Notes: generated by a model not told the origin, from the letters alone. A DNA stretch of 64,000 nt from Candidatus Kapaibacterium sp. (GCA_040398805.1 JBBATK010000010.1:18113-82112), one strand, 5' to 3'; counted from the first letter of the stretch, positions 1,350 to 43,377 are shown. Numbers and translations: made by a program.

Positions 1350-4300
1350 CTACTTAAAAAACATGATAGGAATTTGAAACTCGATGTCCCTCGATTGCAA
1401 CTCAATGCGGTATAGACCGTCGGTAAGTGAGTGCGTGTCGAAAATAAGAGAATTGAGTCCCTTCCGCAAAAACAATTTTTCCGCTATGGGAAATTTCCGT
1501 CCGAGTATGTCCACAGCATGAACAGCGAGTGAAATGCCGTCGATTTTCGACTCGATTTCCGCATGCAATTCGTCGCCTGCCGGCACCGGATACATCGCCC
1601 GCACGACCACGTCGGCGAAGGCGATATGACGCACGTCTTCGGCACACACGGGCGCTATGCTCAACTGTGTCGTATCGCGAGCACCTGCATAGCAATCGTC
1701 GTGCTCGATCGTTGTCACGACCGACGCTTTTTGCTGCTGTGAAAGCAAGGCAAGACAGGGAACTTCGACTGTCCAATCCTCCGCTTGACCGACAACGATC
1801 CGCTGTTGTGTCTCGATGCGTAAACCACCGGCTGTGCGCAGGACATTCACCGGTTCGAGCGCGCCCGTGGTTCGACGCTTCAAGACGGCCTTGTCACTGA
1901 ACGGGACGAGCATGGAGGGTGGGATGGAGGAGCTGACAGCGAACGTGACGGGCCGGGAGGGCGCGCTGCGTTCCCAGCGACCGGAGTACACCAAAAGGAC
2001 CGTATCGTCCGGCGTGCCTGCGACGGGCCCCAGAAGAGCCACGAGCGCGGATGCCGATCGAGTCGTCACGCTTATCGTCGTATCAATCGTCCACACACCG
2101 GCCCGAATGGTCGTCCGGAGCGTACCGGACCGAATGGGAGGCGTAAGAACGCCCCGGACCGAGTCCTGGGTCCCTGCCTGCACGATTCTCACCCCAGGGT
2201 ACTGGATGAGCGTATCGGAAGAGATGTTCGTCCGAACCTTGATATCCGTCACCGATATGGGCACGGTATCGATATTGACGATGGCGATGGAGTAGCGGAC
2301 GGTATCGCAGACGAAACCCGAGTTCTGCGAGATTCTAACGGTGGGACGCCGTGCCTTCGGTTTCGTCGTATCCGTCGTCGTCGTATCGTCCGTCGTCGTA
2401 TCCCTTGCCCACCCGCGTATGACGATGGTGCTCTCCTTCCGGAAATACGCCCGGTCCGCATCATGACGCACCACGAGAGTCATCGTATGGAACCCCGCAC
2501 GCTTCGGCACGAAATCGATGGCCGAAACGAGACTATCCCCGGATTGCATGACGCGATACCCGCGATCGCGATCAGCGATACGGAACGACGATGCGTCGGG
2601 TCCTTGGATGGTGATCGTATCCACGGTCAGCGGCTCGTTCCCGAAAGCGAGAACCAATCGGGATGATTTCCGCTGCACCGCCCCCACGGCGATCGTATCG
2701 AAATCCACATCAGCGACGGTGATTTGCGGCACCGTGCCACGTCCGCGCAGAGAGATATCTACGGACGGCTCCTTGGCCCGTTTCGATACGAAGCCGAGGA
2801 CCGAGCGATAGCTCCCTGTGGTCAAGGGATAGAATCGCACAGGGATGACGAACGAATCCCGCGGGACGATGATCACGTTTCGTCCTGCCGGCAACGAATG
2901 CAGGAACTCCTGCGTATCTCCGCGTTGCGACGCATACACAAGATTAGCCGTGGCATTTCCCTTGTTCCGGATCACCACGTTCGTGTCGATGAAGGTGGCT
3001 ATGCGGCGGGAACCGAAGTCGATGCTATCATACATGAGCAGCGAGCGTATTCCCTGACCTCGCACCTCACCTTGGACATCCAGGCCGAGCGAGTTCTCGA
3101 ACATCATGATGCGCTTGAGATCGAAGGTATCCGTCGGTGCGAAGCAGACACGTAGAGCCATGGAGTCTCCGGGCGCTAACGTCTTCGGCAACGAGGTCGC
3201 CGCATCGGTTGTGAAGACCGCCGTCGGAAAACTCAGATAGGCCTTCGTGATCGTCGCCGTCCGTGTTCCGCTGTTCGTCACTTTCATGGTCGTGCAGACC
3301 GTGTCGCCGATGTATACCTGACCGAAATCCACGTCTTCTACGCGCATCGCGGACGTCGGTGTGGTACCCTTGACGACCACCCGGATGCTGAGTCCGCACC
3401 CGATATCGAATATCACCGTATCTGTCACCTTCAATCCGCTTTGTCCCTTCGGCAGGAAGCACATGGCGAAATCGATACCTCCTTTGTTCGGAACACGAAG
3501 AGGGAACGGTAACAGACTATTGAGGACGAACTCCTTGGTATTCCCCGCCAGACGCACGGATCGCAGAATGAGCGAATCCGTTGCCGACGGGTTCTGGACG
3601 AACAATCGCTGACAGAGGGAGTCGTTCTCCGTCTTCGTCGTGAACAGGAGCGATGTCGTCTGCGTGAATCGCGGTGATTTGTAGTAGTATCGGAACACCC
3701 GTCCGTTCCCCGCCTTGTCGCGCGTCACGATGAAGATCTGCGCGTCCTTGTACGGATTCGTCGGTCGTGCCGTCCACGTCATCGTGTTCGGGTCGCCGGC
3801 CACGTTCACCGCCGAGAAGTCATAATTCTTCGTGCTATCCGCATCGATGGCAACGAAGGCTATGCCCGTACTTGTCGAGGTGACTACCTCGCGCACGGAC
3901 CCCGTGAGCACGCCGCACGACACAGCGTACGAGAACTGCGGCGCAAGCGTATCGCTCTTTCCGGCAATGGTTGCGAACCCTAGCGTATGCGCGTAGGAAT
4001 CCGTGTAGCCCATACCATATAAAGTTCCGGTGAAGAACCCCGTGTCGCAGGTGATCTCATGTTTGCCGGGAGAAATGGGGATGACCGCCCAGAAGAACGG
4101 CGATGAGCGGAACTTGGCGGTCAAAATCTCGGGGGCGATGCTCTTGCCGATGTTCACTCCGTCCAGCTTCAAGGAGGTGCGCGCAAGCGAATCACACATG
4201 AGATTGACGAAGTGTCTCTGATACTGCGTAGCGAAAGCCGGCTCTCCAAGGTTGAACGGAGCTTGGAAGACACTTCGCGTGATGTATTTGTCCGTGGGTG

Positions 4301-5405
4301 CGATGATCGTGAGCGAGGGGTCGTATCCCGACGAACCGCCCACCGAGCCCGTGAGCATGTATTGACCGATGGTCACGGGCTTGTCGGCCCGGATCCACGC
4401 GGGTGAATTCACGCCGCTCATTGTCTGTATGTCGCCGGCGTTGGTCAGCATATACGAGAAATCCTGCCTCTCCGTGTACACGCTGATCCTTGTATTCGGT
4501 TGCGTGGCGACGATGCGGATGATATCGCCGACGGGTATCCTGGCGTCCGTATAGAACGGCGTCGTGAAGTACTCGTTCGTCAGGGTCTGGTCCGGCATGA
4601 GCCACTCCGCAAGATGGTCCTTGCTGTCCGCCGTCGTGACAAGTCCTTGAGGGACCGACGTGCGCGCGTGACCCGAGATGACGGCAATGGGACGGTTAGC
4701 GCGGATAAAACTGCCGGTAAGATCGCCGAGTTTGGGGGCGATGGGAGCGGACTTCACCAGGTAACACTGGCCTCTTTGCAAGGTGATTCTGCGTAGTTGC
4801 CCCGCCGGTATGCCGCCTTCGCTCGGCGCGGTGAGCAGAAGATCCACTGAGGTGTTGTCTTCGGAGGCCATGACGAGGAACTCGCTTTGGCGGATCTCCG
4901 ACGGTGGTATGCCCGTCGTATCCGTACCGAAACCGTATGCATCGTTCGGCATGCTCAATACCGTGTATTGCGTACCCCAGTTCGATACCGGTATCACTGC
5001 GTAGGAATCCGAGGTGGTGAACTGCGAGTTCATGGCATAGACGGCGATGGGAACGTCCGACGTGACGCGCACAAGGTTCGGCTTGACCACCTCGCTTTCA
5101 CGCATCTCCAGGATCGACGGAACGACAAGCGCGAGGGTGGAATTCGCAGAGATCGCATACGGGGTGGCGGAGCCGCCGGGGAATTGCACGGACACTTTGG
5201 CGGGCAACGACGTGGCGATGACCAAGCGCAGACGCAGGCCGGACGATTGGATGAAGTTCTCGTTCTGCATGTAGCCGACAAGGAAATCATATCCTTCGAA
5301 CGAGGAACCGCGCCGCTGCGCAAGCGAGTCCGTGAACTGCGCCGACACATGGCCGGCACACAGCCATATCGCAAGGACCGCCACTATGATTCGGATTCGT
5401 ACCAT
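1350..5405 (-). CDS. Giant secreted T9SS cargo protein A (1351 aa): signal peptide, IgGFc-binding-like N-domain, ASH/DUF1573-like repeats, type-A T9SS C-terminal sorting domain
   Basis: Signal peptide MVRIRIIVAVLAIWLCAGHVSAQ. N-region alignable by eye to protein B (IRIVATQPNTRISVYT vs IRIVATEDNTIVYTKT; GQYMLTGSV vs VGQYGKAW). Repeats start VDFGQVYIG, IDFGSRRIA, VDFDTIAVG. C-terminus ...DGLYRIELQSRDIEFQIPIMFFK is CTD-like. Confidence 0.8.
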   Translation of the reverse strand: MVRIRIIVAVLAIWLCAGHVSAQFTDSLAQRRGSSFEGYDFLVGYMQNENFIQSSGLRLRLVIATSLPAKVSVQFPGGSATPYAISANSTLALVVPSILEMRESEVVKPNLVRVTSDVPIAVYAMNSQFTTSDSYAVIPVSNWGTQYTVLSMPNDAYGFGTDTTGIPPSEIRQSEFLVMASEDNTSVDLLLTAPSEGGIPAGQLRRITLQRGQCYLVKSAPIAPKLGDLTGSFIRANRPIAVISGHARTSVPQGLVTTADSKDHLAEWLMPDQTLTNEYFTTPFYTDARIPVGDIIRIVATQPNTRISVYTERQDFSYMLTNAGDIQTMSGVNSPAWIRADKPVTIGQYMLTGSVGGSSGYDPSLTIIAPTDKYITRSVFQAPFNLGEPAFATQYQRHFVNLMCDSLARTSLKLDGVNIGKSIAPEILTAKFRSSPFFWAVIPISPGKHEITCDTGFFTGTLYGMGYTDSYAHTLGFATIAGKSDTLAPQFSYAVSCGVLTGSVREVVTSTSTGIAFVAIDADSTKNYDFSAVNVAGDPNTMTWTARPTNPYKDAQIFIVTRDKAGNGRVFRYYYKSPRFTQTTSLLFTTKTENDSLCQRLFVQNPSATDSLILRSVRLAGNTKEFVLNSLLPFPLRVPNKGGIDFAMCFLPKGQSGLKVTDTVIFDIGCGLSIRVVVKGTTPTSAMRVEDVDFGQVYIGDTVCTTMKVTNSGTRTATITKAYLSFPTAVFTTDAATSLPKTLAPGDSMALRVCFAPTDTFDLKRIMMFENSLGLDVQGEVRGQGIRSLLMYDSIDFGSRRIATFIDTNVVIRNKGNATANLVYASQRGDTQEFLHSLPAGRNVIIVPRDSFVIPVRFYPLTTGSYRSVLGFVSKRAKEPSVDISLRGRGTVPQITVADVDFDTIAVGAVQRKSSRLVLAFGNEPLTVDTITIQGPDASSFRIADRDRGYRVMQSGDSLVSAIDFVPKRAGFHTMTLVVRHDADRAYFRKESTIVIRGWARDTTTDDTTTTDTTKPKARRPTVRISQNSGFVCDTVRYSIAIVNIDTVPISVTDIKVRTNISSDTLIQYPGVRIVQAGTQDSVRGVLTPPIRSGTLRTTIRAGVWTIDTTISVTTRSASALVALLGPVAGTPDDTVLLVYSGRWERSAPSRPVTFAVSSSIPPSMLVPFSDKAVLKRRTTGALEPVNVLRTAGGLRIETQQRIVVGQAEDWTVEVPCLALLSQQQKASVVTTIEHDDCYAGARDTTQLSIAPVCAEDVRHIAFADVVVRAMYPVPAGDELHAEIESKIDGISLAVHAVDILGRKFPIAEKLFLRKGLNSLIFDTHSLTDGLYRIELQSRDIEFQIPIMFFK

Positions 5406-7210: not shown

Positions 7211-8527
7211 ATGTATACCGAATCGACAAAGCTTCAACAGGAAACCGCGATCGTCATCTCCGTGGGGCGAAAAGGTGAGGACCGAGCTCTCGTCCGCGAG
7301 CATCTCGAAGAACTCGTCTTTCTGGCGGAAACGGCACAGGTATTCGTTGCGGAGACGATGATCCAGGAACGCGTCTCGCCGGACGTGGCCACCTACATCG
7401 GCAAGGGGAAGGTCCAGGAACTCAAGGAACTCGTGGAACAGCACGATGCCCACGTCGTCCTTGCCGACGACGAACTATCGCCCGTACAGATACGGAATCT
7501 GGAACGCGAACTGAATGTGAAAGTGCTCGACCGCAGCGCTCTGATCCTCGACATCTTCGCCACGCGCGCACGGTCCCTGGAGGCCAAGACCCAGGTGGAG
7601 CTAGCGCAGTTGCAATATCTCATGCCGCGCCTTTCACGCATGTGGACACACCTTTCCAAGCAGTACGGGGGTGTCGGCACGAAGGGGCCGGGAGAAACCC
7701 AGATAGAAAGCGACCGCCGGATGATCCGCTATCGCATCCAGCGGCTGAAAGAGAAACTGCGTGACATCGACGTCCAACGGAAAGAACAACGGAAACAGCG
7801 GGGAGCGCTCACGCGCTTCGCCCTTATCGGTTATACGAATGCGGGTAAATCCACGCTCATGAACGTGATGACGGATGCCAAGGTGTACACGGAAGACCAG
7901 CTCTTCGCCACCTTGGACACGACAGTACGCCAACTTGAACTGCCTGCGGGCACCATCGCTTTGCTCTCCGACACCGTCGGGTTCATTCGTAAGCTTCCCG
8001 CACACCTCATCGCGTCGTTCCGTTCCACCCTGGCGGAGTCCATGGAAGCGGACATGCTCATCCATGTCGTGGATGTCAGCCACCCTGCCTTCGCGGAACA
8101 CATGGCGGTGGTCGATGAGACCCTGAAAGAACTTCATGCCGAGCAGAAACCGCTCGTGCTCGTGTTCAACAAGGTTGATGCGGTGGAGGATAAGGACCTG
8201 CTAGAAACGCTCGCGCATGAGTATCCCGATGCCATCCAGCTATCGGCGCAAAAAGGACTCAACGTCCGGTCGCTTCTTCGCCGCATGCAGGAATTCTGCG
8301 ACTCCTGCGCCGATGTCGTGGAACTCTTTCTTCCCTTCTCCGCCATGAACAAGGTGGCGGCGCTATATACGACGGCGGAAGTGATCGAGCGTCGGGATGA
8401 GGACGAAGGCGTGTACATGAAGGTGCGGGTACCGCCACCTCAACAGAAATTGATGGAATCGACGTATGGCGAGTATATTCGTGCACACGAGACGGCCGAG
8501 CCGGCTGTCGTCAACGTGGATGCCTGA
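7211..8527 (+). CDS. hflX: GTPase HflX
   Basis: G1 motif GYTNAGKST, DTVGF, NKVD. Length and N-terminal HflX domain are typical. Confidence 0.9.
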   Translation: MYTESTKLQQETAIVISVGRKGEDRALVREHLEELVFLAETAQVFVAETMIQERVSPDVATYIGKGKVQELKELVEQHDAHVVLADDELSPVQIRNLERELNVKVLDRSALILDIFATRARSLEAKTQVELAQLQYLMPRLSRMWTHLSKQYGGVGTKGPGETQIESDRRMIRYRIQRLKEKLRDIDVQRKEQRKQRGALTRFALIGYTNAGKSTLMNVMTDAKVYTEDQLFATLDTTVRQLELPAGTIALLSDTVGFIRKLPAHLIASFRSTLAESMEADMLIHVVDVSHPAFAEHMAVVDETLKELHAEQKPLVLVFNKVDAVEDKDLLETLAHEYPDAIQLSAQKGLNVRSLLRRMQEFCDSCADVVELFLPFSAMNKVAALYTTAEVIERRDEDEGVYMKVRVPPPQQKLMESTYGEYIRAHETAEPAVVNVDA

Positions 8528-8575
8528 CCCTCCGTCAGGTTATGGACGTCCTTCTTCTCTTCGTAAACAGCGCTC

Positions 8576-8740
8576 ATGAACTTCGTGTATCTGATCATCG
8601 TCACCGTGCTCGTGTTTTTCGTCACGGTCGCCCTCGTCGTCATCGGACAAGAAATCAGCGTGTTGCTGGCCATCGCGTTGTTCGCCGGACTCGTCTACGG
8701 CTCGCTCAAGCTCGTGTCGCGCCGACTGACGAAGCTCTGA
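8576..8740 (+). CDS. Small hydrophobic membrane protein (54 aa), not present in the ORF track
   Basis: ATG at 8576, TGA at 8738. Translation MNFVYLIIVTVLVFFVTVALVVIGQEISVLLAIALFAGLVYGSLKLVSRRLTKL has two predicted transmembrane helices and GC-rich third positions like neighbouring genes. Confidence 0.35.
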   Translation: MNFVYLIIVTVLVFFVTVALVVIGQEISVLLAIALFAGLVYGSLKLVSRRLTKL

Positions 8741-8742
8741 CG

Positions 8743-9228
8743 TCAGACCTTTTGACCGCATCGCACGACGAACACGGGACACACCGCTTTGCGCAAAACC
8801 TGTTCCGTGGTGCTTCCCAGCACAAGGTGGTTCAACCCTGAGCGCCCGTGGGTGGAGAGGCAAATCATCGAGATATCAAGAGCCGCCGCGTACTCCGCTA
8901 TGACGTCCGACGGACGTCCCTCCCGGATCGCCCACTCCACCGCCAACCCCTCCGCCTTGAGGTCGCTCACCAGATTTGCCATGCGCTCCGTGGCCTGACC
9001 GCGCAGGCTTTGCATGACATCGAAATACACCGACTGCTCTATTCCGTCCGAACCCGAGAACAGTTCGAGTGGCTCGACCACGTATAAGAGATGGAGCGTG
9101 GAGGAGTACCGCTTCGCCAAGTCTACCGCATACGCGCGCGCATGCATCGAACATTCGGAGAAGTCCACCGGAAAAAGGATGGACGGGTAGGTTTTCTGTT
9201 CAGATGGCATGTCGGTTCTTCCTTTCAA
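8743..9228 (-). CDS. Universal stress protein (UspA family)
   Basis: ILFPVDFSECS...LLYVVEP...GSTTEQVLRKAVCPVFVV is the UspA ATP-binding fold pattern. Confidence 0.8.
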   Translation of the reverse strand: MKGRTDMPSEQKTYPSILFPVDFSECSMHARAYAVDLAKRYSSTLHLLYVVEPLELFSGSDGIEQSVYFDVMQSLRGQATERMANLVSDLKAEGLAVEWAIREGRPSDVIAEYAAALDISMICLSTHGRSGLNHLVLGSTTEQVLRKAVCPVFVVRCGQKV

Positions 9229-9355
9229 TGATACAAATCCATGTCTCGCGTTTCATCGCCGTCATCACCGTCCTGCATTCTCGTTGAGGACCTCCCTCGA
9301 AGGTGTTCCTTGGAGGACTTCCCTTGTTCGTGACGTCCGTCAGGCGCGCGCCGGC

Positions 9356-10891
9356 TTAGCGAGTGACGATGCCGCGGAGCGAGCGGACCGTTCCATCGTT
9401 CAGGTGCAGGGTCACGAAGTACACACCATGCGGAAGATCGGGGAACACTATCCGTTGACCTCCGGTTTCGGAACCTCTCTCGCAGTTACCGACCACGTCA
9501 CCACGCACATCATACACCAGCACGTGGCGGACGGCGGATGTGTTGCCGGTGTGGACGACAAGGTCGCCGTTCGATTCGCACACGACCCGCTCCTCGTCGC
9601 GCACCCGCCCCTCGTCCACGCTCGTGGATTTCACCGGCGTGACGGTAAGGATGAAGCGCGTGTTCGCATCACTGCCCACGTACAGACGTCCTTTGGCGTC
9701 CACGGTCAATCCTACCGGACGAGCCCAGCCCCATCCCGAGCTCCGTGTGGAGTCCGTCATGAAGCCCGTCAAAAAGTCCGCCGTGTAATTCGCCGTCGTA
9801 TCGTTCTCGTTGTCGAAATCAAGATAAATAATCTTCCCGCCGGTTGCCGGTGTGCGGTTCCATGATCCCCGGAGTGCCACGAACATCCCGTTCCTGAACG
9901 TCTGCGGCATGCTCGGATGAGCAGACACCAGGGCCATCGGCGCGCTGTGCGCCTGAATGAGACCCGCGGGTTGTACCATACTTGCCACGTTCGCCGAATC
10001 CTTCGCCGTTAACGGCAGCAAGGCACGATAGTCACCCGGTGATGACGAGCTCAAGGGAAAGAAGATTCCGTGGGAATGCGCATACGGGTATCCGTAGAAA
10101 CCTCCGTCGCGGACCACGTCGATCCACTCAGGAGGCACGTCGTTACCTTGACTGTCGCTTCCGTTGTTCGATGCCCAGACCCTGCCTCCGCGCAGGAGCA
10201 GTCCCACCGCATTCCTCGCCCCCGTGGCATAGGTCTTCCGTCCCGTGCCATCCGCGTTCCACTCTTCGATCAACGCTCGCTGATAATCCGTATCCCCGGG
10301 CTTCTCGGACCTGCACACGTTGCACAGCGAACCGATGGACAGATACACTTTGCTCCGCACGGTGTCGAAAAGGATGGTACGGGTGGTGTGACCGCCACCG
10401 GGCTGCGTCGCTCCCTCGGCTATGGGCGCAATGAAATCGCTTCGCGTCTCATACCGTCCGTCGTTGTCAAGATCCTGAAGGCGCACCACCGACCGCTCTT
10501 GGGCAGCGTACAGATCGCCACGATAGAAGGCGATGGAATGGGCGGTAACGTTCGTCGCCACCGCGATGATCGTATCGGCGATGCCGTCGTCGTTGCGATC
10601 CGGAAGCGCATAGATGGAACGCGCATCCAGATCGGCGATATGCAAGACGCCATCCGGACTCCACTCCATGAATCGAGGTTTCCTCAGTGCCGCACCGGCA
10701 TAGAACACGGACACCGTGAAGCCCTCAGGGACGTTCACCCGCGCAGTCGCCGGCAACACACCACGATACTTGACGGGCTGGTCGATGAGAACCGATGTCA
10801 AAGGGATCTGCTTGTACGGGGTCATGACCGGGACGTCCTGCGCAACCATCGACGTATAGACAACCAAGAAGACGAAGACGTTCTTTATCAT
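9356..10891 (-). CDS. PQQ-dependent soluble sugar (glucose/sorbosone-type) dehydrogenase beta-propeller with type-A T9SS C-terminal sorting domain
   Basis: Signal peptide MIKNVFVFLVVYTSMVAQ. sGDH-like propeller motifs (GDLYAAQ, RYETRSDFIAPI, HTTRTILFD, YGYPYAHS). C-terminal ...LVYDVRGDVVGNCERG...LPHGVYFVTLHLNDGTVRSLRGIVTR is CTD-like. Confidence 0.75.
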   Translation of the reverse strand: MIKNVFVFLVVYTSMVAQDVPVMTPYKQIPLTSVLIDQPVKYRGVLPATARVNVPEGFTVSVFYAGAALRKPRFMEWSPDGVLHIADLDARSIYALPDRNDDGIADTIIAVATNVTAHSIAFYRGDLYAAQERSVVRLQDLDNDGRYETRSDFIAPIAEGATQPGGGHTTRTILFDTVRSKVYLSIGSLCNVCRSEKPGDTDYQRALIEEWNADGTGRKTYATGARNAVGLLLRGGRVWASNNGSDSQGNDVPPEWIDVVRDGGFYGYPYAHSHGIFFPLSSSSPGDYRALLPLTAKDSANVASMVQPAGLIQAHSAPMALVSAHPSMPQTFRNGMFVALRGSWNRTPATGGKIIYLDFDNENDTTANYTADFLTGFMTDSTRSSGWGWARPVGLTVDAKGRLYVGSDANTRFILTVTPVKSTSVDEGRVRDEERVVCESNGDLVVHTGNTSAVRHVLVYDVRGDVVGNCERGSETGGQRIVFPDLPHGVYFVTLHLNDGTVRSLRGIVTR

Positions 10892-11123
10892 TTGGACATT
10901 CCAAGTGGAGAAACATGCTGTTCGAACATGCCTATAATAACGATTTTTTCTCCGATCATGGTTCGAACACTAAAAGGTCGACCATTCTTGTCACGAAGGT
11001 GGGTCCCACGGGAAATGACAAGATGCCCCGCATACCCACGCGCAGGACAGCTGTCCATGCGCGGCACGGCGATATCCATGAGTGGCAACGATGATGGGCG
11101 CTCAACAAGCCCTTCGGGAGACC

Positions 11124-11555
11124 TTACTTTTTCGAGCCCGGAGCTTTGACTCTGTTTTTCTTCACATCGGCAAGCGTGACCTTCGTCCCGTTGTTGCCCC
11201 AACTACCGTACACATACGTCAGGATGTCGACGACATCCTGATCCGTGTACTTCGATGGCAAAGGTGCCATGATGCCGTTGTACTTCTTCCCGTTGACGAC
11301 GATCTCGCCCTTCAGGCCGCCCGTCACCGCTTTGATGATTTCCGCTTTGCTCTTGGTCTTGAGATAATCGGATCCCGCCAGCGGCGGGTATAAGGATCCC
11401 AGTCCCTTCCCTGTCTCCTGATGGCATGTCTTGCAATACTCGTTGTACAATTTCTGCCCTTTCGCTTTGTCTTGCGCCTTCGCACCGACACCGGCGATCA
11501 ATGCTGCGATGACCATGACTACCACTGCTTTCATATCCGTACCCTTGATGAACAT
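11124..11555 (-). CDS. Class I c-type cytochrome (mono-haem), secreted
   Basis: Signal peptide. Single CKTCH haem-binding site (CxxCH) with a downstream Met-containing region. Start may be at MKAVVVMV (11534). Confidence 0.75.
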   Translation of the reverse strand: MFIKGTDMKAVVVMVIAALIAGVGAKAQDKAKGQKLYNEYCKTCHQETGKGLGSLYPPLAGSDYLKTKSKAEIIKAVTGGLKGEIVVNGKKYNGIMAPLPSKYTDQDVVDILTYVYGSWGNNGTKVTLADVKKNRVKAPGSKK

Positions 11556-11687
11556 TGAAACAAATACTTTCCTTCAATCTCTTTATTCCCGTGCCCGATC
11601 TCCTTGTATAGGCGACGACCCGTTCCATCGATACCCGCGCATGGACGAGGCAGAAGGCCAATTCGTCTTTTTCTTCGGTCTTCATCA

Positions 11688-12143
11688 TCACAAAGCGATA
11701 CGCTTGAGCATCTCCGGATGCGCCAAGCGAAGATTGAGCATAGTAGCATCATGCGCCAGCGCCTCCAACGACGTCCCCATGAACACACGGACGATTTCCG
11801 TGCGGAGCATCACCCAACGGTCGTGCACCGGACACGCCTCCGCCACGCCGCATCCGGGCAGACCCAGCATGCATTGCTCGAACACATCCGTTCCGTCGAT
11901 GACGCTGATAAGATCGAGGAGAGATACATCTTCCGCCCTCTTGGCAAGCATCACCCCCCCATGCACGCCCCTCTGCGAGGTCATGATACCGGCGTTCGTC
12001 AGTTGCTGCAAGACTTTCGTGAGAAAGTGGAAGGAGATATTCAGGTTCGACGATATCTCGTTGATCGAGATCCAATCTTCGCACTTCCTGGCTGCGACGT
12101 AGATGGCCGCTTGCACGCCATACGTACATGTTTTGGAAAGCAT
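11688..12143 (-). CDS. Rrf2 family transcriptional regulator (IscR/NsrR-like; three-Cys cluster ligands present)
   Basis: N-terminal wHTH YGVQAAIYVAARK...ISINEIS...FHFLTKVLQQL. Cys-x-Cys spacing CMLGLPGCGVAEACP. Confidence 0.85.
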   Translation of the reverse strand: MLSKTCTYGVQAAIYVAARKCEDWISINEISSNLNISFHFLTKVLQQLTNAGIMTSQRGVHGGVMLAKRAEDVSLLDLISVIDGTDVFEQCMLGLPGCGVAEACPVHDRWVMLRTEIVRVFMGTSLEALAHDATMLNLRLAHPEMLKRIAL

Positions 12144-12426
12144 GGAATCACCTCGTTCGTGGTGGTGGTGGTGGGTGAGACGTACCTTATGAGAGATTAA
12201 GACTATTTTATCTGCAATCTACGCAACGAACCGAAAACGAGCAAGGATGATCGATGCTTTTTATCCACAGCACATGCTTTCCCGGCGGTCCGAGCCGGTG
12301 TGGGACCCACCATCCGGAGCGCTCTGGGGAGGAGGCACACGTTTCCCGATTGCCGGCATACCTGACGTGGCGAAATGCGTCTGTATCTTGCGTCTCTGCA
12401 TCCAATCGACCGACATCACGGAACTC

Positions 12427-15400
12427 ATGGCCGACACCGCACCACCGTTATTACCATTGGTACGAGCATTCGAGCGCACGTCCTTCCATCGACGACTGCG
12501 CAGCGCACTGGACACCGGTGAGCAGATCCGTACGCGTACCTTGCGGGGGTCCTTGAAGTCCTTGGCGGTGGCCTCCGTGCATGTCCATGCCCGACGTCGC
12601 CTGCTTGTCGTCTGCGCTCCGGAGGTCGTGTCGGCGTGGTACCACGACCTTGCCTCCATGGTGCCGCATACCTCCATCGCGGCTTTTCCCGAGGCGTCGA
12701 AGACGCGAACGGCCATCAGTCATCATCACGAAGACATGGCCCGCATCGTCGACGTGGTATCCACCATCGAGAAGAGTCCGCTCGCCATCATCATCGCAAC
12801 GCCCGCCTCGTTCAGCGTGCCGTTGCCGAAGCCGGAATCGGTGGTTCACAACTCGATGAAATTGAAGCGCGGCGACACGCAGGGTTTCGATGAACTCACG
12901 ACGCACCTGCTTCTCAATGGGTTCGAGCGACGTGATTTCGTGGCGCAACCGGGCGACATCGCCGTGCGCGGCGGCATCATCGACCTCTTCCCCGTTGGTT
13001 GGTCCACGCCGTTGCGCATAGAGTTCTGGGGGAACAGCATCGACTCCGTGCGGGAATTCGATCCCTTGTCGCAGCGGAGCATCCGTGAGCATGAGTCCGT
13101 GGAGTTCCTGGCCCGCTTCATCAGCGACGAGCACGACGAGTTCTCCTGCCGGCTCAGCGACTATGTCTATCCCGATACCCAGATCGTGCTCGACGAGCCG
13201 GATCATCTCGCCTCCTTGTTCGATGATCTTGACGCGACGACGTTGAGCGAGGACTTGAGCGCTCGGGCCACGCTCCTGATCAATCCCATCGGCAGCTGCA
13301 TCATCGAGACGCAATCCCACGCACAACTGTCCGCCGATGCCTCCATGGATGCCGTCTACGACGAACTCATCCGTCACCAGCAGAGCGGGACCGCCGTCTT
13401 CGTGTGTGCAGAAGGTACCATCCACACCAAGCGCATGCACGAGTTGCTGGAGAACGTCGCGGAACGTCGGGAGGCCGATGACGATGCGGAGACGCACCTG
13501 TCCACCGATCGCATTCACTGGTTGCACGGAACGCCGCACGCCGGCTTCACGTGGACCGAGGAACGCCTTTGCGTGATGACGGAGCACGAGGTGTTCAACC
13601 GGCAGCGCTTCCGCGATGCGCGACGCTACGCACCGTCCGCCGGCCTCACCCTGCGCGAGCTCCAGCAGCTGCGGCGGGGCGACCTCATCGTGCATATCGA
13701 TAAGGGGGTGGGTCAGTTCGACGGACTCGAGACGATAACCATTTCCGGGAGCAAGCAGGAAAGCGTCCGTCTCGTCTTCGCCGACAACGACGTGTTATAC
13801 GTCCATTTGAATTACCTCAACAAACTGCAACGCTACTCGGCGGCCGAAGGCACATCGCCGAAGCTCAGCAAACTCGGCAGCGGCGATTGGGAACGGAAGA
13901 AAGCGCGGACGAAGAAGAAGGTCAAGGACATCGCCCGGGACCTCATCAAGCTCTATGCCCAACGGAAATCCCTTCGCGGCTATGCCTTCCCCGCCGATAC
14001 GATCTGGCAGAAAGAGTTCGAAGCGTCGTTCATGTACGAGGATACGCCGGACCAGTCGCGCGCCACGGCCGAAGTGAAAGCGGACATGGAAGTGCCCATG
14101 CCCATGGACCGATTGGTGTGCGGCGATGTCGGCTTCGGCAAAACGGAAGTCGCCATCCGCGCCGCCTTCAAAGCCGCGCAAGCCGGCAAACAGGTGGCCG
14201 TGCTTGTTCCCACGACCATCCTTGCACAGCAGCATTACCTTACCTTTAGCGAACGATTGCGACGCTATCCCGTGACGGTGGACGTCATGTCGCGCTTCCG
14301 CACGCCCGAGGAGCAGAAATCCGTCGTGGAACGCCTGAAGAACGGCGACGTCGACATCCTCATCGGCACCCACCGGTTGCTGAGCAAGGACGTGGAGTTC
14401 CGGAATCTCGGATTGCTCATCATCGACGAGGAGCAACGCTTCGGTGTGGGCGCTAAAGAGAAACTGCGGACGCTGCGTGCGAACATCGATACGCTGACAC
14501 TCACGGCAACGCCGATCCCGCGGACATTGAACTTCTCCCTCATGGGTGCCCGCGACCTCAGTCTCATCGAGACCCCTCCGCGGAACCGCCTGCCCGTGCA
14601 GACGAGCATCATCGAATGGGATGCGGACATCCTTCGCGAAGCGATCAACAGGGAACTCGAACGAGGCGGCCAGCTGTACCTGGTGAACGATAGTATTCAT
14701 GAGCTGGACGAGATAGCGATGCGCCTTGTGGAGATCATTCCCGGTCTGCGCTTCGGCATCGCACACGGACAGATGGACACCAAGAAACTCGAGAACGTCA
14801 TGGAACGTTTTCTCGAACGGAAATTCGACGTGCTGCTCAGCACGAAGATCGTGGAGAGCGGTCTGGATATCCCGAATGTCAATACGATGATCATCAACCA
14901 CGCCGACCGCTTCGGACTTGCCGAACTGTATCAGCTGCGCGGACGCGTGGGACGTTCCAATGCGCAAGCATACTGCTATCTCTGCGTGCCGCCGGTGAAG
15001 ACCTTGAACCGCACCGCCATCCGGCGCCTGCAAGCCATCGAAGAGCACACCGACCTGGGAAGCGGATTCCACCTTGCCATGCGGGACCTGGAGATACGCG
15101 GCGCCGGAAATCTTCTCGGGGCGGAACAAAGCGGATTCATCGCCGAACTCGGACTGGAGACCTATCAGCGTATCGTCGATGAAGCCGTCCGCGAACTCCG
15201 TCATGAGGAATTCAGCGACATGTTCCCCGAAAGCGAACTCCTCAACGTATCGAACGAAGACCTGGCGGTGGAACTGGACGGCGATGCGCTTCTTCCCGAA
15301 TCGTATGTGCCGAAGGACACCGAGCGTTTCGAATTCTACAAACGACTCTTCAACGCCCGCACGGAAAGGTCGCTCGAGGATATCGCCGGCGAATTGCGCG

Positions 15401-25195: not shown

Positions 25196-25709
25196 GGTAT
25201 CCTTCGAAAAAAAAAGTTTTCGTCGAGACGATGAGGGCTGTCGTCGCGACGGACCCGCGACAGGCGCACAAACGCCTGCCTACGGGTGTCGCCGGATGCG
25301 TAAACTAACATCCGCACAGGGTAGGCGGCAAAGGACTTTACCCGAACGACGCCGGGAAATGGACGGACGAAAGGATGCTGTCCGAACGTTGCCGTCCTCT
25401 CGCGAAAAAAGATTCGGTCATTGTACTATTCCGTGGTAGATTCACGCATGCACGCGACGCTGTTCGTGACCTCCCATGCGGATGTCAAGCCCAAGCGCGT
25501 GTGAGAGTGGCAGACGATCGTTACTGCACGCACGGGAAGAACACGGAGACATCGGAAGACGCAACGGGGACGGGGAGAAGATGGAGACTCTGGCGATGCA
25601 GTGAAACGTCGCAACGAACGGATGAGGTAGGGATACGCACCGCGTGCGGTTTCCGACGTCCGTACTGAACCTTGATGATACTTTTTCCAACATCTTACCT
25701 AGGAGTTCC

Positions 25710-28700
25710 ATGAACGCCTCGATTACCAACAACGTGCTTCGCGTGCTCGCCGTGTGCGCACTCATGCTCACGAATGCACTCTTCGCTCAAACCGGCAAGG
25801 AGATCCTTGAAGGCCGTGAGTTCTATTTCGGTGTTCCCCACTGCGACGTCCAGTCGGGTGAGGGAGCGCGCGGAAATCCCATTCAGCTGTGGATTTCCTG
25901 CAAGGTCCAGACCCGCGTCTCGGTGACCGTACCGAGAACGGGCATGAACATCGGCAACTACGTGATCCAGCCGAAGAAGGTGCAGATCCTTCCCGTACCG
26001 CAATCGCTGATGAACACGATCACGGGCGTGACCGATAACGGTATCTACATCAAATCGGACGATCCCATCACCGTGACGGTGTATGTGAGCTACAAATGGA
26101 CGGGCGAAGCGTATCGCGTTATTCCTGCGGAGGTTTTGGGCAAACGGTATTTCACCCTCAACATGTATCAGGACAAGACAGAGCGTGAACGTCCCGCACA
26201 GCTGTTGGTCGTGGCCACGAAGGATAACACGGTTGTGAGTGTTTCGCCCAAGACCCTGACGGAAGACGGCGTACCGGCAGGAGGATCGAAGAACTACAAG
26301 TTGATGAGAGGTCAGACACTGCTCGTCAAGGCGAAGATCCAGCCCGGTAAGGACCTCGATTGGTCGACGGACCTGACGGGAACGAAGATCATCGCAACGA
26401 GTCCGGTGGCTGTGTTCTCCGGTCACACCAAAGGGGCATTCCCCCGCTTCCAAGCGACGATGCTTGGCACACCCGCGAACTTCATGCGGAACATGATGAT
26501 GGATGCCATGTGGCCGGTGGAATTCCTCGGTAAGGAGTATTTCTCCGCGCCGATCATGTACACCGACAGACCACGCGCGAATTTCGACCTGGATTCGTGG
26601 GGCGACCTTATCCGCATCGTCGCCACGGAGGACAATACCATCGTGTACACGAAAACCTGTGGCGGACCCAATCCCGATGCCGATTACCAACCGCGATATC
26701 CCGCTTTGAAGGCCGGACAGGAGTATCGTATCGACAGCCAGGAATGGCCTGCACTGTATCGCGCCAGCAAGCCGGTCCTTGTGGGTCAATACGGTAAGGC
26801 ATGGCGATTGAACCAGGTGCAGGGAACAGGTAAGACGAATGATGGACAGAACCCTTCACGTAACGGTCAGGGAATGATGTACGTCCTTACTCCCGAGGAG
26901 CAATGGTCGACCTACACGACATTCTATTCGCCCGAGACGATTGACAACTTCGTCATGGTCACCTTCTACACGGCCGATCGCGGCAAGCTCATGTTCGACG
27001 GAGCTCCGATCAATGCAAAATTCGGCAGCTACATCAAGCAGGTCTCCGGTTCGAACAAGAGCTATATCGTTGCGCCGGTCTCCGCCGGTAGTCATACCAT
27101 CGAAGGTGCGAAATTCACGGCGTATGTGTACGGCAACTGGGACCGGACGAAGGACGGTTTCGCCTACGGTTATCCGACAGGTGTGAATTTCACGCAAACG
27201 TGTCCCGATACGATCCTCGTCAATGCAACGATCAACTGCGGCATTGTTACGGGATTGGCGCAGATCAAGCCTGACACGTCCTCCTGCAGTTCGATCTTTT
27301 CCGTGGAGCTCGACAATTCCGCGTCGACAAACTTCCGCCTGGATTTGGATCCGAACTTCGAAAGCGGTCAGATGAAAGCTGCCTTCACCGCCTCGGTCAT
27401 CGACCCGACGAAGGACGCACATGTTCGCATCATAGCGGTCTCGCGCTCCGGAAAGGAATCGACCGTCGAGTTCGACTATGTAGCGGAGGCGATCGCCGCC
27501 AAGCCGACCATTGTGGACTTCGGCACGTTGGCTATCAATACCGACTCATCGGCGAATATCAAATTGACGAATGTCTCGAAGACGGAGACGGTCGTGAAGA
27601 ACGTGTTCCTTCGAAACAAGGTACCGCAGTTCACCATCGTACCTCAGCAGTTTCCACGGTCGTTGGAGCCGGGTGAGTCCATGACGGTCACGGTCGTTGC
27701 GCGCACAGCGGAGAAACTCACGACCACCCTCAAGGACAGCGTCATTGCAGAACTTTCCTGCTACGAAAGCCCGGTTGCGCTGCTCTTGTTGAGCGGCGGC
27801 ACACCGTGCGTCCGTGTTTCCGACGTCGTATTCCCTCCGTCGCCGGTGAACGTCGAAGCCGGTCCTCGTCAGTGTGTCATTTCGAACACGAGCAAGGTCG
27901 ACGCGACCATCAGCAAGATCACGGTACCCGATGATGCCTCGGGCAAGAAGTTCCGTCATGATCTCAAACTGCCTTTCAAATTGGTCGCCGGACAATCGCA
28001 GAGCTTCAATGTGTGGTACACGCCGTCGGACCTGACGACAAAGGACAATATCAATGTCGTGTTGGAAACGAATGGTGAGCCCTCATGTACGGATAACGAA
28101 TCGGCGTGGTCCGGCAGCGGACTCGATGCGGGTCCGAAGATCACCGATTACGACTTCCGCGTCGTGCGTGTTCTTGACACGTACAATCGCACAGTCAATG
28201 GCGTCACGGAATACAAGGGTACCGTCACGATCGATGCTTTCGGTAACGATCCCTTACAGAACCCCCGCATCACCGTCGCGCAGATCACCGCGCCGACGGG
28301 TGCCGATGCGACCACGGCAATCGTCCTCACGACTGCAGGGATCCCCTCGCAGCTGTTCCCGAACAATCCGTTCAATATCCCCGTCTCATTCCGTCCGGAC
28401 GTCGTTGGTGATTACGGCCTGCGCGTAACGCTGACGGCGGATTTCAACGGCGAACCGCGCGTCGTGTCCAGTACGGTCATCGGCCGGGCTGTCGTTCCTA
28501 TCGAAGACTCCTTGGGTCACACCTTCCCTACGACGAACATCGGCGCCACCGCACCTGCGGGCAACGTAGTGATCTACAATTCGGGAACGATGGATCTGAC
28601 CATCAAGTACTTGAGCATCGACAAGACCCTCGACGCGAACAATTCGTTCAGTATCGATCCGGCCTGGCTGGCAACGAACCTTGGCGGTGGCAAGACCATC

Positions 28701-30510: not shown

Positions 30511-31026
30511 ATGAAATCTACGATAACGACCATAGTACTGACGGTTGCATTTCTCGTCATTCCAAGCCGGACGACGGCGAACACCCTGCCGGTGGTTCAT
30601 GCCCCGACGACCACCGTTAGCGCGCAGGACAGGGTATGGGCGGACTTTTTCGGCTTAAGCATCGAACTCACTTTCGGCACGAACATACCGTCCTGCCGCT
30701 GCTGCTATGGCGGCATTTGCAGCGTAAAGGCGACCATTCCGTTCTTTCTGAAAAAGGGTCCTCTCAACGATGAATACATCGCTTCCCAGGTGCGCGGCTT
30801 CCAAGCAAACGATCAGGCGAGCATAGGACGTACCTCGACCGGAGAGGTGTATCTACTGTTCAACAGGGACATCACACGCCCCGAGTTCCTCGGATCCCAA
30901 CTCACTATCACCGCACCCGTGCACGTCGATCCCGTCCTCGTCAAACAATACAACATCCCGCAGATACCGGCCGGTACGTACGACATCACGGACAACGGTT
31001 TGTTCAAAATGATACGGATTCAATGA
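30511..31026 (+). CDS. Hypothetical small secreted protein with CRCCYGGIC cysteine cluster
   Basis: Signal peptide MKSTITTIVLTVAFLVIPSRTTA. No family recognised. First gene of a four-gene co-directional set. Confidence 0.45.
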   Translation: MKSTITTIVLTVAFLVIPSRTTANTLPVVHAPTTTVSAQDRVWADFFGLSIELTFGTNIPSCRCCYGGICSVKATIPFFLKKGPLNDEYIASQVRGFQANDQASIGRTSTGEVYLLFNRDITRPEFLGSQLTITAPVHVDPVLVKQYNIPQIPAGTYDITDNGLFKMIRIQ

Positions 31027-31027
31027 C

Positions 31028-31666
31028 ATGATGCAGTTGAGAACCATCGCGCGTCCACGAGTTTTCAGAATCGTCCTCGTCGCAATCATCTGCATCGTTG
31101 TGGCCATCATATGGATGATCGGACCATACGTGTGGAACATGGCGGTCGTCATGGGAATGAGACCGTGGAACATGCGAACGCATACCCGAGCGGAGATCAT
31201 CGCACTGGCTGATAGAGAGCCGCTTCGACAGCATGGACAGCTCTACGGAGAACATGCTGCCGTCGCAACGATCTTCTCGAAGGGCGGCGGCATCGACGAT
31301 GGCTCGGAACCGGCCTACCTCGTGTTCGACCGCGATGGTTTTCTCCTGCGTCAGCATGCGTGTTTCGAATCGATGCCGGGTTTTCTCGACAGCACCAGGA
31401 GAGTCCGCGGTTGGTACGAAAAGGACACCATGTTCACCCTTCATGACTGTACGCGTGTCCTTCGTTCGCTTGGTTCAATGAAGCCGTTCGAGCTTGATAC
31501 CGCATCCAAACCCGACTATACCGTCATCCTTGGCTGGAACGACTACTTCCGCCATGCTGAACGGAAGATCGATTCGTTCCTCGTCGCCATTCGAACCAAG
31601 CCGTATACGACTCGCGTCCTCATGGTCAACACGAATGCGAAAGACTCCTCGTTCATCAAAAAGTGA
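31028..31666 (+). CDS. Hypothetical membrane-anchored protein
   Basis: N-terminal transmembrane helix IVLVAIICIVVAIIWMIGPYVW. Starts 2 nt after the previous stop. Confidence 0.4.
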   Translation: MMQLRTIARPRVFRIVLVAIICIVVAIIWMIGPYVWNMAVVMGMRPWNMRTHTRAEIIALADREPLRQHGQLYGEHAAVATIFSKGGGIDDGSEPAYLVFDRDGFLLRQHACFESMPGFLDSTRRVRGWYEKDTMFTLHDCTRVLRSLGSMKPFELDTASKPDYTVILGWNDYFRHAERKIDSFLVAIRTKPYTTRVLMVNTNAKDSSFIKK

Positions 31667-31851
31667 TCACTGCCGGTACGGGTGACTGCGGGAATCGTGA
31701 TCCCGTAGGACCGGATCGAAAGGCCACACGAGGATATTCGTCTTCTACGGTATGCACATGACTTCTTCCTACCCTCGACAGCACCGGTAGCCGTTCTTCG
31801 GAGCATCCTTTATCATTCACCATTCTTGTTTGTATCACCACTCCCCCGTGT

Positions 31852-32427: not shown

Positions 32428-32705
32428 CCCGATAGCTTCAAGGCAGAGTACCGGTCGGACAGATACCATCTCCGATCCCCACCGGGCCTTGGGCTTCCCG
32501 ATGCCAAGGACTGCACAACGTGCGAAGAGAAGGAATGAGCCCCGCGTCCCCCATGCGTCATTGGAGTGAGTTCAATCTCCACGGAGGACGCACGATACGG
32601 TCGTGGAACATGTACGCGATACGTATCTCCCGGCCTCATCCTTCTCTTTCGTGCGTGTATCGCCGAACAGATTCGTCTCAGACTCATCCTCTTCATCACC
32701 ACGTC

Positions 32706-43218: not shown

Positions 43219-43377
43219 AATCTCTCCTTCGTTAGGTTTCGACGTCCGCTCGCCGAGGACGTCACCGCAGACACTCATAGGTACGGATTCCCGATGTTCC
43301 GCGACTCATCCGACGCCGACCACACCACCTCGCGCCGTCCGAAACGGCGGTTTCGGATCCGGCTCGAGCATAGTGAC

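Follow-up and report, generated by a model that had tools for sequence, protein, structure and literature searches.

The four co-directional genes at this locus probably belong to two units of different age: a conserved Rrf2/cytochrome c/Usp (universal stress protein) cassette and a stand-alone gene for a secreted dehydrogenase inserted into it. The first unit would be a cassette conserved in Kapaibacteria-like bacteria, in which Usp accompanies an Rrf2 regulator of the Fe-S type and a soluble mono-haem cytochrome c of the periplasm, with a putative role in the redox or stress response; it is probably driven and/or auto-regulated from a single conserved 22-nt element that precedes Rrf2. The second would be the free-standing dehydrogenase gene, encoding an AA12-like enzyme that depends on PQQ and Ca and acts on sugars (pyranose/aldose); it would have entered between the cytochrome c and Usp genes in the ancestor of this sub-lineage. 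Its product would leave the cytoplasm by Sec, fold in the periplasm and then cross the outer membrane by type IX secretion (T9SS) via a C-terminal sorting domain (CTD). Once displayed on the cell or released into the medium, the enzyme would take up scavenged PQQ and oxidize free sugars. The cytochrome would not be its dedicated electron acceptor nor Rrf2 its dedicated regulator, and the gene would at most hitch-hike on the cassette transcript. A preliminary description of the locus had the gene identities right (Rrf2 of the Fe-S type, cytochrome c with a single haem, and a propeller of the PQQ sugar dehydrogenase type that ends in a T9SS type-A CTD), and we find these three minus-strand ORFs at the positions it gave; it overlooked Usp, the fourth gene. 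The features are as follows, numbered within the window, by which we mean the whole 64,000-nt stretch analyzed.

8743..9210 (alternative start 9228), minus strand: Usp, universal stress protein (PF00582, E 7e-34).
9356..10891, minus strand: AA12-like (GSDH superfamily) PQQ/Ca-dependent sugar dehydrogenase precursor, 511 aa, predicted from homologues, profile, Foldseek and conserved residues.
9359..9595, minus strand: divergent T9SS type-A C-terminal sorting domain of the dehydrogenase, residues about 433–511 (PF18962, TIGR04183, hhalign, AF2).
10892..11123, minus strand: spacer of 232 nt between the cytochrome c and dehydrogenase genes (fold z-score -0.93; no significant structure, only a marginal terminator-like hairpin).
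11124..11534 (alternative start 11555), minus strand: mono-haem class I cytochrome c (PF00034, E 9e-13, 49.8 bits; PF13442, E 4e-10).
11554..11578, no strand assigned: imperfect palindrome ATTGAA-N13-TTCAAT, an inverted-repeat pair with 11-nt arms, 82% complementary.
11688..12143, minus strand: Rrf2-family transcriptional regulator, 151 aa (PF02082, E 1.4e-27, 96.9 bits; TIGR00738, 97.5 bits).
12196..12217, minus strand: conserved 22-nt element TTGCAGATAAAATAGTCTTAAT, 74 nt upstream of the Rrf2 ATG.

The distribution of gene order carries the two-unit reading. We surveyed 80 species-representative genomes with the enzyme, counting as neighbors any genes within 5 kb, and found an Rrf2 or cytochrome c gene beside the dehydrogenase in only two (L008 and L009), both of which have the window's entire synteny, from Mfd to HflX; the linkage is missing in the other 78. 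The Rrf2–cytochrome c–Usp trio occurs without a dehydrogenase in four other lineages (L088/L089, L177, L175/L176 and L090/L091), in three flanking contexts. L088 and L177 place it between Mfd and HflX, exactly the window's flanks, the missing dehydrogenase being the sole difference; in L175 it lies between PhyH and a TPR gene with operon-like gaps of 62 and 37 nt, and L090 has the order Rrf2–Usp–cytochrome c in another context. Usp adjoins Rrf2 and cytochrome c in all eight related lineages examined, with the dehydrogenase present or not. Since linkage to the dehydrogenase is rare and the trio occurs independently of it, the conserved unit is Rrf2/cytochrome c/Usp, and the dehydrogenase is most simply read as a lineage-specific insertion between cytochrome c and Usp. 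Clustering of the dehydrogenase neighbors at 82 loci yielded no recurring cytochrome, sugar transporter or pqq gene; the commonest neighbor (15 loci) was an uncharacterized protein of ~325 aa, and a Sortilin/BNR protein was nearby in nine. The one representative of the ~325-aa protein that was scanned carries a T9SS CTD.

Against the two-unit reading stands the stability of the four-gene adjacency, which persists across no fewer than four diverged sub-lineage members: L002 (dehydrogenase 98% identical to that of the window), L004/L008 and L009 (both 69%) and L173. Further, the window genes are separated by no convincing terminator or recognizable promoter. A dehydrogenase gene that landed within an earlier operon might well share its transcript and hence come under Rrf2 control. 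The counts of intrinsic terminators and sigma-70 promoters between the genes were at shuffle expectation, the RNA folds of all four spacers were no better than those of shuffles, and there was no Rfam match in the whole window or in 8500–12500. Of the terminator candidates, the only one in the cytochrome c–dehydrogenase spacer has a poor U-tract. On the side of the two-unit reading, L088 has a 16-bp hairpin with a trailing U-run behind cytochrome c.

The regulator contains the motif C91-x6-C98-x5-C104-x2-H107, whose four residues are invariant in five orthologues with identities down to 50% and are probable Fe-S cluster ligands. It shares the winged-helix Rrf2 fold with IscR/NsrR-type Fe-S regulators (its relatives in the PDB are CymR and IscR), and its ligand spacing is nearly that of IscR (C92/C98/C104/H107), with one extra residue in C91-x6-C98. 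It falls below every equivalog cut-off, that of CymR as well as those of IscR (65 bits vs. 208), NsrR (45 vs. 182), RirA (60 vs. 193) and SufR (73 vs. 111). Its partner genes also differ, being cytochrome c and Usp and not isc/suf or hmp.

A search for Rrf2-binding palindromes, proposed for two intergenic regions, had different outcomes in each. Upstream of Rrf2 (12144–12426) lies the 22-nt element, which includes the imperfect palindrome AGAy-AAAATA-GTCy; the 64-kb window has a single copy of the element, where none is expected. The element recurs at the same relative position upstream of Rrf2 in L004, L009, L173, L088 and L177 and, inverted, in L090. Allowing up to six mismatches, no second copy lies upstream of cytochrome c, the dehydrogenase or Usp, the one exception being a copy in L090, downstream of Rrf2. 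The element is a candidate promoter or Rrf2 auto-operator, and the window Rrf2 may, like the IscR/NsrR types, regulate itself through such a palindromic site. Its core, AGAy-N6-GTCy, presumably matches none of the published IscR/NsrR consensus sites. The second region (11556–11687) overlaps a palindrome, the imperfect one at 11554..11578 just upstream of the probable cytochrome c start, but this shows no clear conservation across L004, L009 and L088. Separately, the paired GTTCGAAC palindromes upstream of the dehydrogenase at 10920–10927 and 10961–10968 (41 nt start to start) were considered as an operator and rejected as chance: The 8-mer is not significantly enriched (five found vs. 2.4 expected), L002, at 98% identity, already has a change in one copy, and both are missing in L173.

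The cytochrome has 136 aa if translated from 11534 (MKAVVV...), the likely true start, or 143 aa from 11555. As expected of a class I mono-haem cytochrome c, it combines a single CxxCH and a distal Met with a signal peptide and a mature size of ~100 aa; the haem site C34-x-x-C37-H38 (CKTCH) and the distal axial Met89 are invariant in 29 homologues. The tail is Lys-rich. The Sec signal ends in AKAQ before an Asp and there is no CTD, which argues that the protein remains periplasmic.

The dehydrogenase, in comparison, begins with a Sec-signal-like sequence, by inspection (MIKNVFVFLVVYTSMVAQ before an Asp), and ends in a domain whose homology to T9SS type-A CTDs is borne out, although it scores below the curated HMM cut-offs. 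Against PF18962 (Por_Secre_tail), it reaches 18.4 bits in the whole protein and 23.1 as an isolated domain (cut-off 27), and against TIGR04183, 22.7 (cut-off 23); all nine CTDs of the window's clade match PF18962 at such sub-threshold scores. An hhalign comparison of the clade's CTDs with canonical CTDs gave a probability of 97.5% (E 8e-12, 77 columns). The D-x-x-G and P-x-G-x-Y-x-V (PHGVYFV) motifs are kept, the usual N-terminal PNP is missing, and AF2 predicts seven beta-strands across residues 435–509. Elsewhere, the window encodes two other cargo proteins that pass PF18962 (34.7 and 38.8 bits); no T9SS machinery genes were seen within it. The CTD is predicted to carry the enzyme out of the cell, across the outer membrane, which disfavors an electron path to a periplasmic cytochrome. 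A sub-threshold domain without PNP is also a point against the two-unit reading: If it were non-functional, the enzyme would be periplasmic alongside the cytochrome. Such a sorting domain is not unusual in this family; about half of its members have one (64 of 120 when counted by protein cluster, 40 of 79 by genome), and it is already annotated though uncharacterized.

The preliminary description had proposed that the Rrf2, cytochrome c and dehydrogenase genes, if co-transcribed, form one module that couples T9SS to respiration: A PQQ enzyme on or outside the cell would hand sugar-derived electrons to the neighboring cytochrome, with Rrf2 providing redox- or NO-responsive control. Co-direction, the lack of clear terminators in the window and the order kept in L002, L004, L009 and L173 agree with this model. 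So do some distant likenesses: TIGR02604/DUF7133 propellers are named haem-binding CxxCH proteins, to which the window propeller (TIGR02604, E 3e-5, 23 vs. cut-off 122) and cytochrome (TIGR02603, E 6e-4, 20 vs. cut-off 68) weakly match, and a fused cytochrome serves the fungal AA12 enzymes (PMC6881789). In the PVC-type haem-binding dehydrogenases (TIGR02604 N-terminal propeller plus TIGR02603 CxxCH domain; DUF7133), however, propeller and haem domain are fused, whereas here they are separate genes, and no CxxCH motif is fused to any of the 120 closest dehydrogenase homologues. Linkage in two of 80 genomes, both syntenic, and a trio that exists without the enzyme in four lineages also speak against a functional module, as does the absence of the dehydrogenase from all 80 metagenomic loci of more distant cytochrome c homologues. 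With the outer membrane predicted to lie between the exported enzyme and the cytochrome, the latter is a poor candidate for its electron acceptor. Within the locus, the Rrf2–cytochrome c gap is 132–153 nt and the gap upstream of the enzyme gene, which has no second copy of the Rrf2-associated element, is 232 nt in the window, 291 nt in L173 and 71 nt as called (or about 137 nt from a guessed true start) in L004. We consider the one-module model unlikely.

What the inserted gene encodes is clearer from fold and active site than from family models. The protein comprises a Sec signal (residues 1–18), a six-bladed propeller (about residues 25–420) and the CTD, with no in-frame start upstream of 10891. 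No record matches it exactly; its 1161 homologues bear the source names "PQQ-dependent sugar dehydrogenase" or "glucose/arabinose dehydrogenase." Pfam and NCBIfam matches are weak, the sole Pfam family passed being DUF7133 (32 bits vs. cut-off 27). An sGDH HMM scan, suggested earlier as a check, did not recover the window protein, which has no GSDH (PF07995) match in the local scan and scores 15.2 bits against TIGR03606 (cut-off 434); PF22807 (TrAA12) likewise gave no match locally, even at E ≤ 10. Relatives do pass: P0023, at 52% identity, scores 39.9 against GSDH (cut-off 25) and 36.7 against PF22807 (cut-off 30.9), and P0001, a 98%-identical protein, has a precomputed PF22807 match. The top PDB matches of the family profile are CcPDH AA12 (6jt5) and TrAA12 (6i1t, 6h7t). 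Foldseek with the AF2 model (pLDDT 81) ranked 6jt5, 6h7t, 6i1t and 6i1q first to fourth (E 2e-20, for 6jt5, to 3e-18; target-normalized TM 0.66–0.71), followed by sGDH and Asd (E 1e-11 to 1e-13). Profile search and Foldseek thus agree that its closest solved relatives are the fungal AA12 enzymes.

The cofactor site was compared with holo-CcPDH, whose PQQ-binding residues are R273, H363, R430, N431, H539, H560, W563, N564 and R621 and whose active-site Ca is bound by the Ser449 carbonyl and the Asp451 carboxylate (PMC6881789); conservation was judged in 38 family members. Eight of the nine PQQ contacts are kept: R73 (for R273, placed through the TrAA12 alignment and not directly on CcPDH), H168 (H363), R226/N227 (R430/N431), H315 (H539), W344/N345 (W563/N564) and R391 (R621), all invariant or at least 90% conserved; the exception is Arg341 for His560. 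N448-S449-L450-D451 of CcPDH aligns with N243-G244-S245-D246, of which N243, G244 and D246 are invariant. Absence of the PQQ and Ca residues had been named as grounds for discarding the assignment; aligned to AA12, all but one of the PQQ contacts and the Ca site are present, and the window propeller is predicted to use PQQ.

The same residues bear on the alternative that the protein is a secreted or surface GSDH/NHL beta-propeller of another kind, which hydrolyzes sugar lactones, binds a ligand or uses a different cofactor. The window protein's scores below the GSDH, TrAA12 and TIGR03606 cut-offs would fit this, as would the Arg in place of CcPDH His560, described as unique to AA12, and a precedent exists in a bacterial extracellular domain annotated as a PQQ glucose/sorbosone dehydrogenase that neither bound PQQ nor oxidized glucose (PMC10916295). 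Pfam scans of 29 window ORFs, all but about 10 of those predicted, turned up no gene for PQQ biosynthesis (pqq), but PQQ-scavenging organisms normally lack pqq genes (PMC6881789). The family-invariant catalytic His and Ca-site Asp and the kept PQQ contacts, best fold matches that are all PQQ enzymes, and the gathering scores exceeded by relatives at 52% identity make a non-PQQ propeller quite improbable.

The fungal AA12 enzymes of Coprinopsis cinerea (CcPDH; 6jt5/6jwf) and Trichoderma reesei (TrAA12; 6h7t/6i1t), the best profile and fold matches, share with the window protein the six-bladed propeller, catalytic His, Arg-Asn pair, HxAP His, GSWN loop, C-terminal Arg and N-x-x-D Ca site. Both are extracellular (by prediction for the window protein), and their hosts need not make PQQ. 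Identity is about 20%. The window protein differs in its bacterial origin and predicted T9SS/CTD route (the fungal enzymes use the eukaryotic secretory pathway), in the lack of the fused AA8 cytochrome b and CBM1, in the residue at His560 and in a conserved C190-x-x-C193 pair. The soluble bacterial PQQ dehydrogenases (Acinetobacter calcoaceticus sGDH, 1cq1; Escherichia coli Asd/YliI, 2g8s; PF07995) have the superfamily, fold, catalytic His and Arg-Asn motif in common with it, but they are periplasmic, without a sorting domain, and only 13%–15% identical; the contacts to Ca and to the PQQ C-7 carboxylate follow the AA12 and not the sGDH pattern (PMC6881789). Among bacteria, Pseudomonas aureofaciens has a homologue of CcPDH, a 2-keto-D-glucose dehydrogenase, that is described as an active PQQ enzyme (Umezawa et al. 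2015, as cited in PMC6881789), so bacterial AA12-like quinoproteins include active PQQ enzymes. Its substrate preference is not transferable to the window protein. The P. aureofaciens enzyme is not known to carry a T9SS CTD.

The weakest alternative, in which the ancestor already had all four genes in this order and the trio-only lineages lost an enzyme originally part of the cassette, is compatible with a deletion between the Mfd/HflX flanks of L088 and L177, but it calls for at least two to three independent losses or rearrangements (L088/L177, L175, L090) against one gain, and other Kapaibacteria orthologues of the dehydrogenase (L001, L006) lie in unrelated neighborhoods with no trio nearby; we regard it as highly improbable.

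The evidence points to a chance juxtaposition of the regulator and cytochrome with the dehydrogenase. A true T9SS-to-respiration module would be remarkable, and the present result chiefly guards against over-interpretation. It also provides a lead in the large uncharacterized group of bacterial AA12-like PQQ dehydrogenases with type IX secretion signals, for which we found no paper linking T9SS to a PQQ enzyme in the literature searched and which has a cultured carrier in Rurimicrobium arvi JCM 31921 (L070). We tentatively raise the possibility, as a speculation, that the T9SS-exported enzymes of Kapaibacteria, Ignavibacteria and Bacteroidota, about half of this family, are a bacterial counterpart of secreted fungal AA12. 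Displayed on the cell or set free, these sugar oxidoreductases would acquire PQQ from the environment outside the cell and pass electrons to extracellular acceptors (LPMO-like redox enzymes, quinones, metals, or O2 to give H2O2), and in the window's lineage, insertion into the Rrf2–cytochrome c–Usp operon would have brought one under Fe-S/redox-stress control. A second lead is the conserved Rrf2(Fe-S)–cytochrome c–Usp cassette itself, which with its upstream element may provide a small redox-stress regulon that is amenable to study in Kapaibacteria, a group that has received little attention.

Four co-directional ORFs on the minus strand of the window are flanked by the Mfd and HflX genes:

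Genes around the PQQ-type dehydrogenase
7211–8527, plus strand, HflX (flank)
8743–9210, minus strand, universal stress protein (Usp)
9356–10891, minus strand, PQQ-type dehydrogenase (propeller), 511 aa
11124–11555, minus strand, cytochrome c (start more probably 11534)
11688–12143, minus strand, Rrf2 regulator
12247/12427–15741, plus strand, Mfd gene (divergent flank)

The preliminary description had named three of these (Rrf2, cytochrome c, and the propeller); each is borne out by an ORF at its site, but Usp had been overlooked. The spacers, in gene order, are 132–153, 232, and ∼145 nt. The four genes resemble neighbouring genes in GC3, and so show no sign of a recent foreign origin. Between Usp and HflX lies a 54-aa ORF (8576–8740, plus strand), without a Pfam match and predicted to encode a hydrophobic, membrane-like peptide (MNFVYLIIVTVLVFFVTVALVVIG...). 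A gene is also called at this position in the related loci L002 and L004/L005, and a 78-aa gene in locus L088; the ORF seems to encode a small, conserved membrane protein.

PQQ- and Ca-binding residues, whose loss would speak against the proposed PQQ-type identity, are retained in the propeller. Contacts were taken from the holo-CcPDH list (PMC6881789) and transferred through HMMER alignments, with R273 placed via the alignment of TrAA12, a second fungal AA12 dehydrogenase, rather than directly. The PQQ residues R273, R430/N431, H539, W563/N564, and R621 of CcPDH correspond to R73, R226/N227, H315, W344/N345, and R391; the catalytic H363 corresponds to H168, and the Ca site N448/S449/D451 to N243/G244/D246. 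H560, which becomes R341, was the sole substitution recorded among the mapped PQQ/Ca contacts, and conservation in the dehydrogenase family is complete or no lower than 90% at each mapped position. DUF7133 was the only curated cut-off passed in HMM scans, with no reported match to GSDH or TrAA12 and a TIGR03606 score far under threshold. The 1161 homologues matched are named "PQQ-dependent sugar dehydrogenase" or "glucose/arabinose dehydrogenase" in their sources, the nearest coming from Candidatus Kapaibacterium, then from Ignavibacteria and Bacteroidota. A profile of 38 members placed fungal AA12 nearest among solved proteins (CcPDH, 6jt5/6jwf; TrAA12, 6h7t/6i1t/6i1q). Foldseek with the AlphaFold model (pLDDT 81) agreed, ranking AA12 first (E 2e-20 to 3e-18), followed by A. 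calcoaceticus sGDH, E. coli Asd, and Streptomyces Adh. The propeller is very probably a PQQ/Ca enzyme, and very probably AA12-like rather than a classical sGDH. A Teredinibacter extracellular domain with similar annotation failed to bind PQQ (PMC10916295), which calls for caution here.

The family also has a C-x-x-C pair, C190/C193 (SLCNVCR, window about 10313–10324), that is at least 90% conserved and lies outside the AA12 set of PQQ/Ca ligands. The two cysteines could form a structural disulfide, as would suit an enzyme outside the cell, or be redox-active.

The T9SS type-A C-terminal sorting domain (CTD) attributed to the propeller held up as well. Residues about 433–511 score slightly under curated cut-offs (PF18962, 18.4–23.1 against 27; TIGR04183, 22.7 against 23) and lack the usual PNP motif. 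A profile of nine CTDs from the window's clade, all nine with sub-threshold PF18962 matches, aligned with canonical CTDs over its whole length (hhalign probability 97.5%, E 8e-12); the domain has seven strands in the AlphaFold model and carries DxxG and PxGxYxV motifs. These comparisons make a good case for homology to canonical T9SS CTDs. Two large window proteins have clear PF18962 domains, suggesting that the organism uses T9SS cargo. A CTD-bearing homologue occurs in Rurimicrobium arvi JCM 31921 (locus L070). Of the 120 nearest protein clusters, 64 matched a CTD HMM, as did 40 of 79 species-representative genomes, and NCBI already names one CTD-bearing family member "T9SS type A sorting domain-containing protein"; the CTD is common in the family and no oddity of this gene.

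We then have individual genes of already known kinds, with their identities supported; their reading as a single functional module is not. Dehydrogenase loci were taken from 80 species-representative genomes and searched for homologues of Rrf2, cytochrome c, and Usp of the window (within ±5 kb) and for any CxxCH ORF (within ±2.5 kb). Partners stood beside the dehydrogenase in two loci only, L008 and L009, whose dehydrogenases are 69% identical to the window's and which share the entire Mfd...HflX synteny. Orthologues at 62%–66% identity in other Kapaibacteria occupy different places, often adjoining a Sortilin/BNR protein, and in no member of the family is a haem motif fused to the propeller. 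The reverse search, started from cytochrome c homologues, found dehydrogenase-free Rrf2–cytochrome c–Usp trios between Mfd and HflX (L088/L089, L177) and between a PhyH and a TPR gene (L175/L176; gaps of 62 and 37 nt), and the order Rrf2–Usp–cytochrome c, again without it, in L090/L091; 80 metagenomic loci of more distant cytochrome homologues had no partner genes. The four-gene form is confined to the window, L002, L004/L005/L008, L009, and L173/L174. Since the trio occurs without the dehydrogenase, and the dehydrogenase mostly without the trio, the conserved unit is Rrf2/cytochrome c/Usp. The most parsimonious history is a single insertion of the dehydrogenase between cytochrome c and Usp; its loss from the trio-only lineages is less likely.

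The commonest neighbour of the family is an uncharacterised ∼325-aa protein, found in 15 of 82 dehydrogenase loci (upstream and co-directional in 14). It makes a stronger candidate partner than the cytochrome does. Its representative in L062 (3057–4214) has a T9SS CTD, no other Pfam domain, and a 30-nt gap to the dehydrogenase.

The small cytochrome of the window belongs to class I, and its single CxxCH and invariant distal Met agree with the mono-haem identity first assigned; it also has a Lys-rich tail. With a Sec signal (conserved ...AQ|DKA) and no CTD, it is predicted from sequence to be periplasmic. The dehydrogenase would most likely be exported via Sec and T9SS to the surface or beyond, there to oxidise sugars in a PQQ/Ca-dependent manner, loading scavenged PQQ. 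No pqq genes were seen among the window ORFs scanned; many PQQ-using organisms lack them (PMC6881789). The outer membrane would thus lie between enzyme and cytochrome, the main mechanistic objection to the cytochrome as electron acceptor. The dehydrogenase's place within a redox-stress cassette, periplasmic or cytoplasmic, would be a historical accident. The closest known systems include secreted fungal AA12, whose fused cytochrome b feeds LPMOs; sGDH and Asd, which are periplasmic; 2-keto-D-glucose dehydrogenase, a bacterial CcPDH homologue; and propeller–cytochrome c fusions of PVC type.

The Rrf2 protein passes no equivalog model and has CymR and IscR as PDB relatives. Its Fe-S-type assignment is supported by C91-x6-C98-x5-C104-x2-H107, invariant in homologues down to 50% identity and matching the sites of IscR ligands. 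A search for Rrf2-binding palindromes yielded a conserved element before Rrf2 but no clearly conserved one before cytochrome c, where a weaker palindrome lies at 11554–11578. The 22-nt element (TTGCAGATAAAATAGTCTTAAT, 12196–12217), 74 nt upstream of Rrf2 and single-copy in the window, has an imperfect palindromic core, AGAy-N6-GTCy. Five further lineages with the cassette keep it at the equivalent position, and one more has it in inverted orientation; there is no further copy before the dehydrogenase or the other two cassette genes. The GTTCGAAC pair preceding the dehydrogenase was rejected as an operator, as it is not conserved. Upstream of Rrf2 in L088 (4281–4400), the ATTGCAG half of the 22-nt element recurs three or four times in ∼120 nt (AAATTGCAG, GAATTGCAG, GAAATGCAG, AAATTGCAT), so ATTGCAG, and not the AGAC/GTCT core, may be what is recognised. 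The Rrf2 leader also holds a (CCA)5 run (CCACCACCACCACCAC, 12159–12175, minus strand) 16–32 nt upstream of the start. Orthologous leaders in L004 and L009 have just CACCAC, so the window's lineage has an expanded run; slippage could change leader length.

Terminator scans, promoter scans, and RNA folds of the window were at background level, and in trio-only L088 a strong hairpin and U-run follow cytochrome c. Should the old cassette still be transcribed as a unit, the inserted dehydrogenase gene would be carried along on that transcript.

Elsewhere in the window, G+C falls to 0.47–0.51 at 56000–60000, against about 0.58–0.60 in the rest, in a segment that may be horizontally acquired. Sortilin/BNR proteins recur as dehydrogenase neighbours at nine loci of other Kapaibacteria. 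Four very large predicted surface proteins (1316–1452 aa) are built of IgGFc-binding, ASH/HYDIN-like, and Ig domains, two with clear T9SS CTDs (PF18962, 34.7 and 38.8 bits). Two giant T9SS cargo genes flank the ORFs of 30511–33614, which have no Pfam match at E ≤ 1e-4.

Other features of the window
1350–5405, minus strand, very large predicted surface protein
25644–30002, plus strand, very large predicted surface protein
30511–33614, plus strand, four consecutive co-directional ORFs (171/212/191/364 aa), signal-peptide-like N-termini
34039–38217, plus strand, very large predicted surface protein
38316–42266, plus strand, very large predicted surface protein
42466–45528, response regulator and histidine kinase pair
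56200–56814, 204-aa ORF, GC3 0.45
56954–59509, 851-aa Sortilin/BNR-repeat protein, GC3 0.57

The literature searched showed no link between T9SS and AA12-like quinoproteins. The original observation is confirmed, and its remaining interest is twofold: an uncharacterised T9SS-exported branch of AA12-like quinoproteins, and a conserved Rrf2–cytochrome c–Usp cassette.
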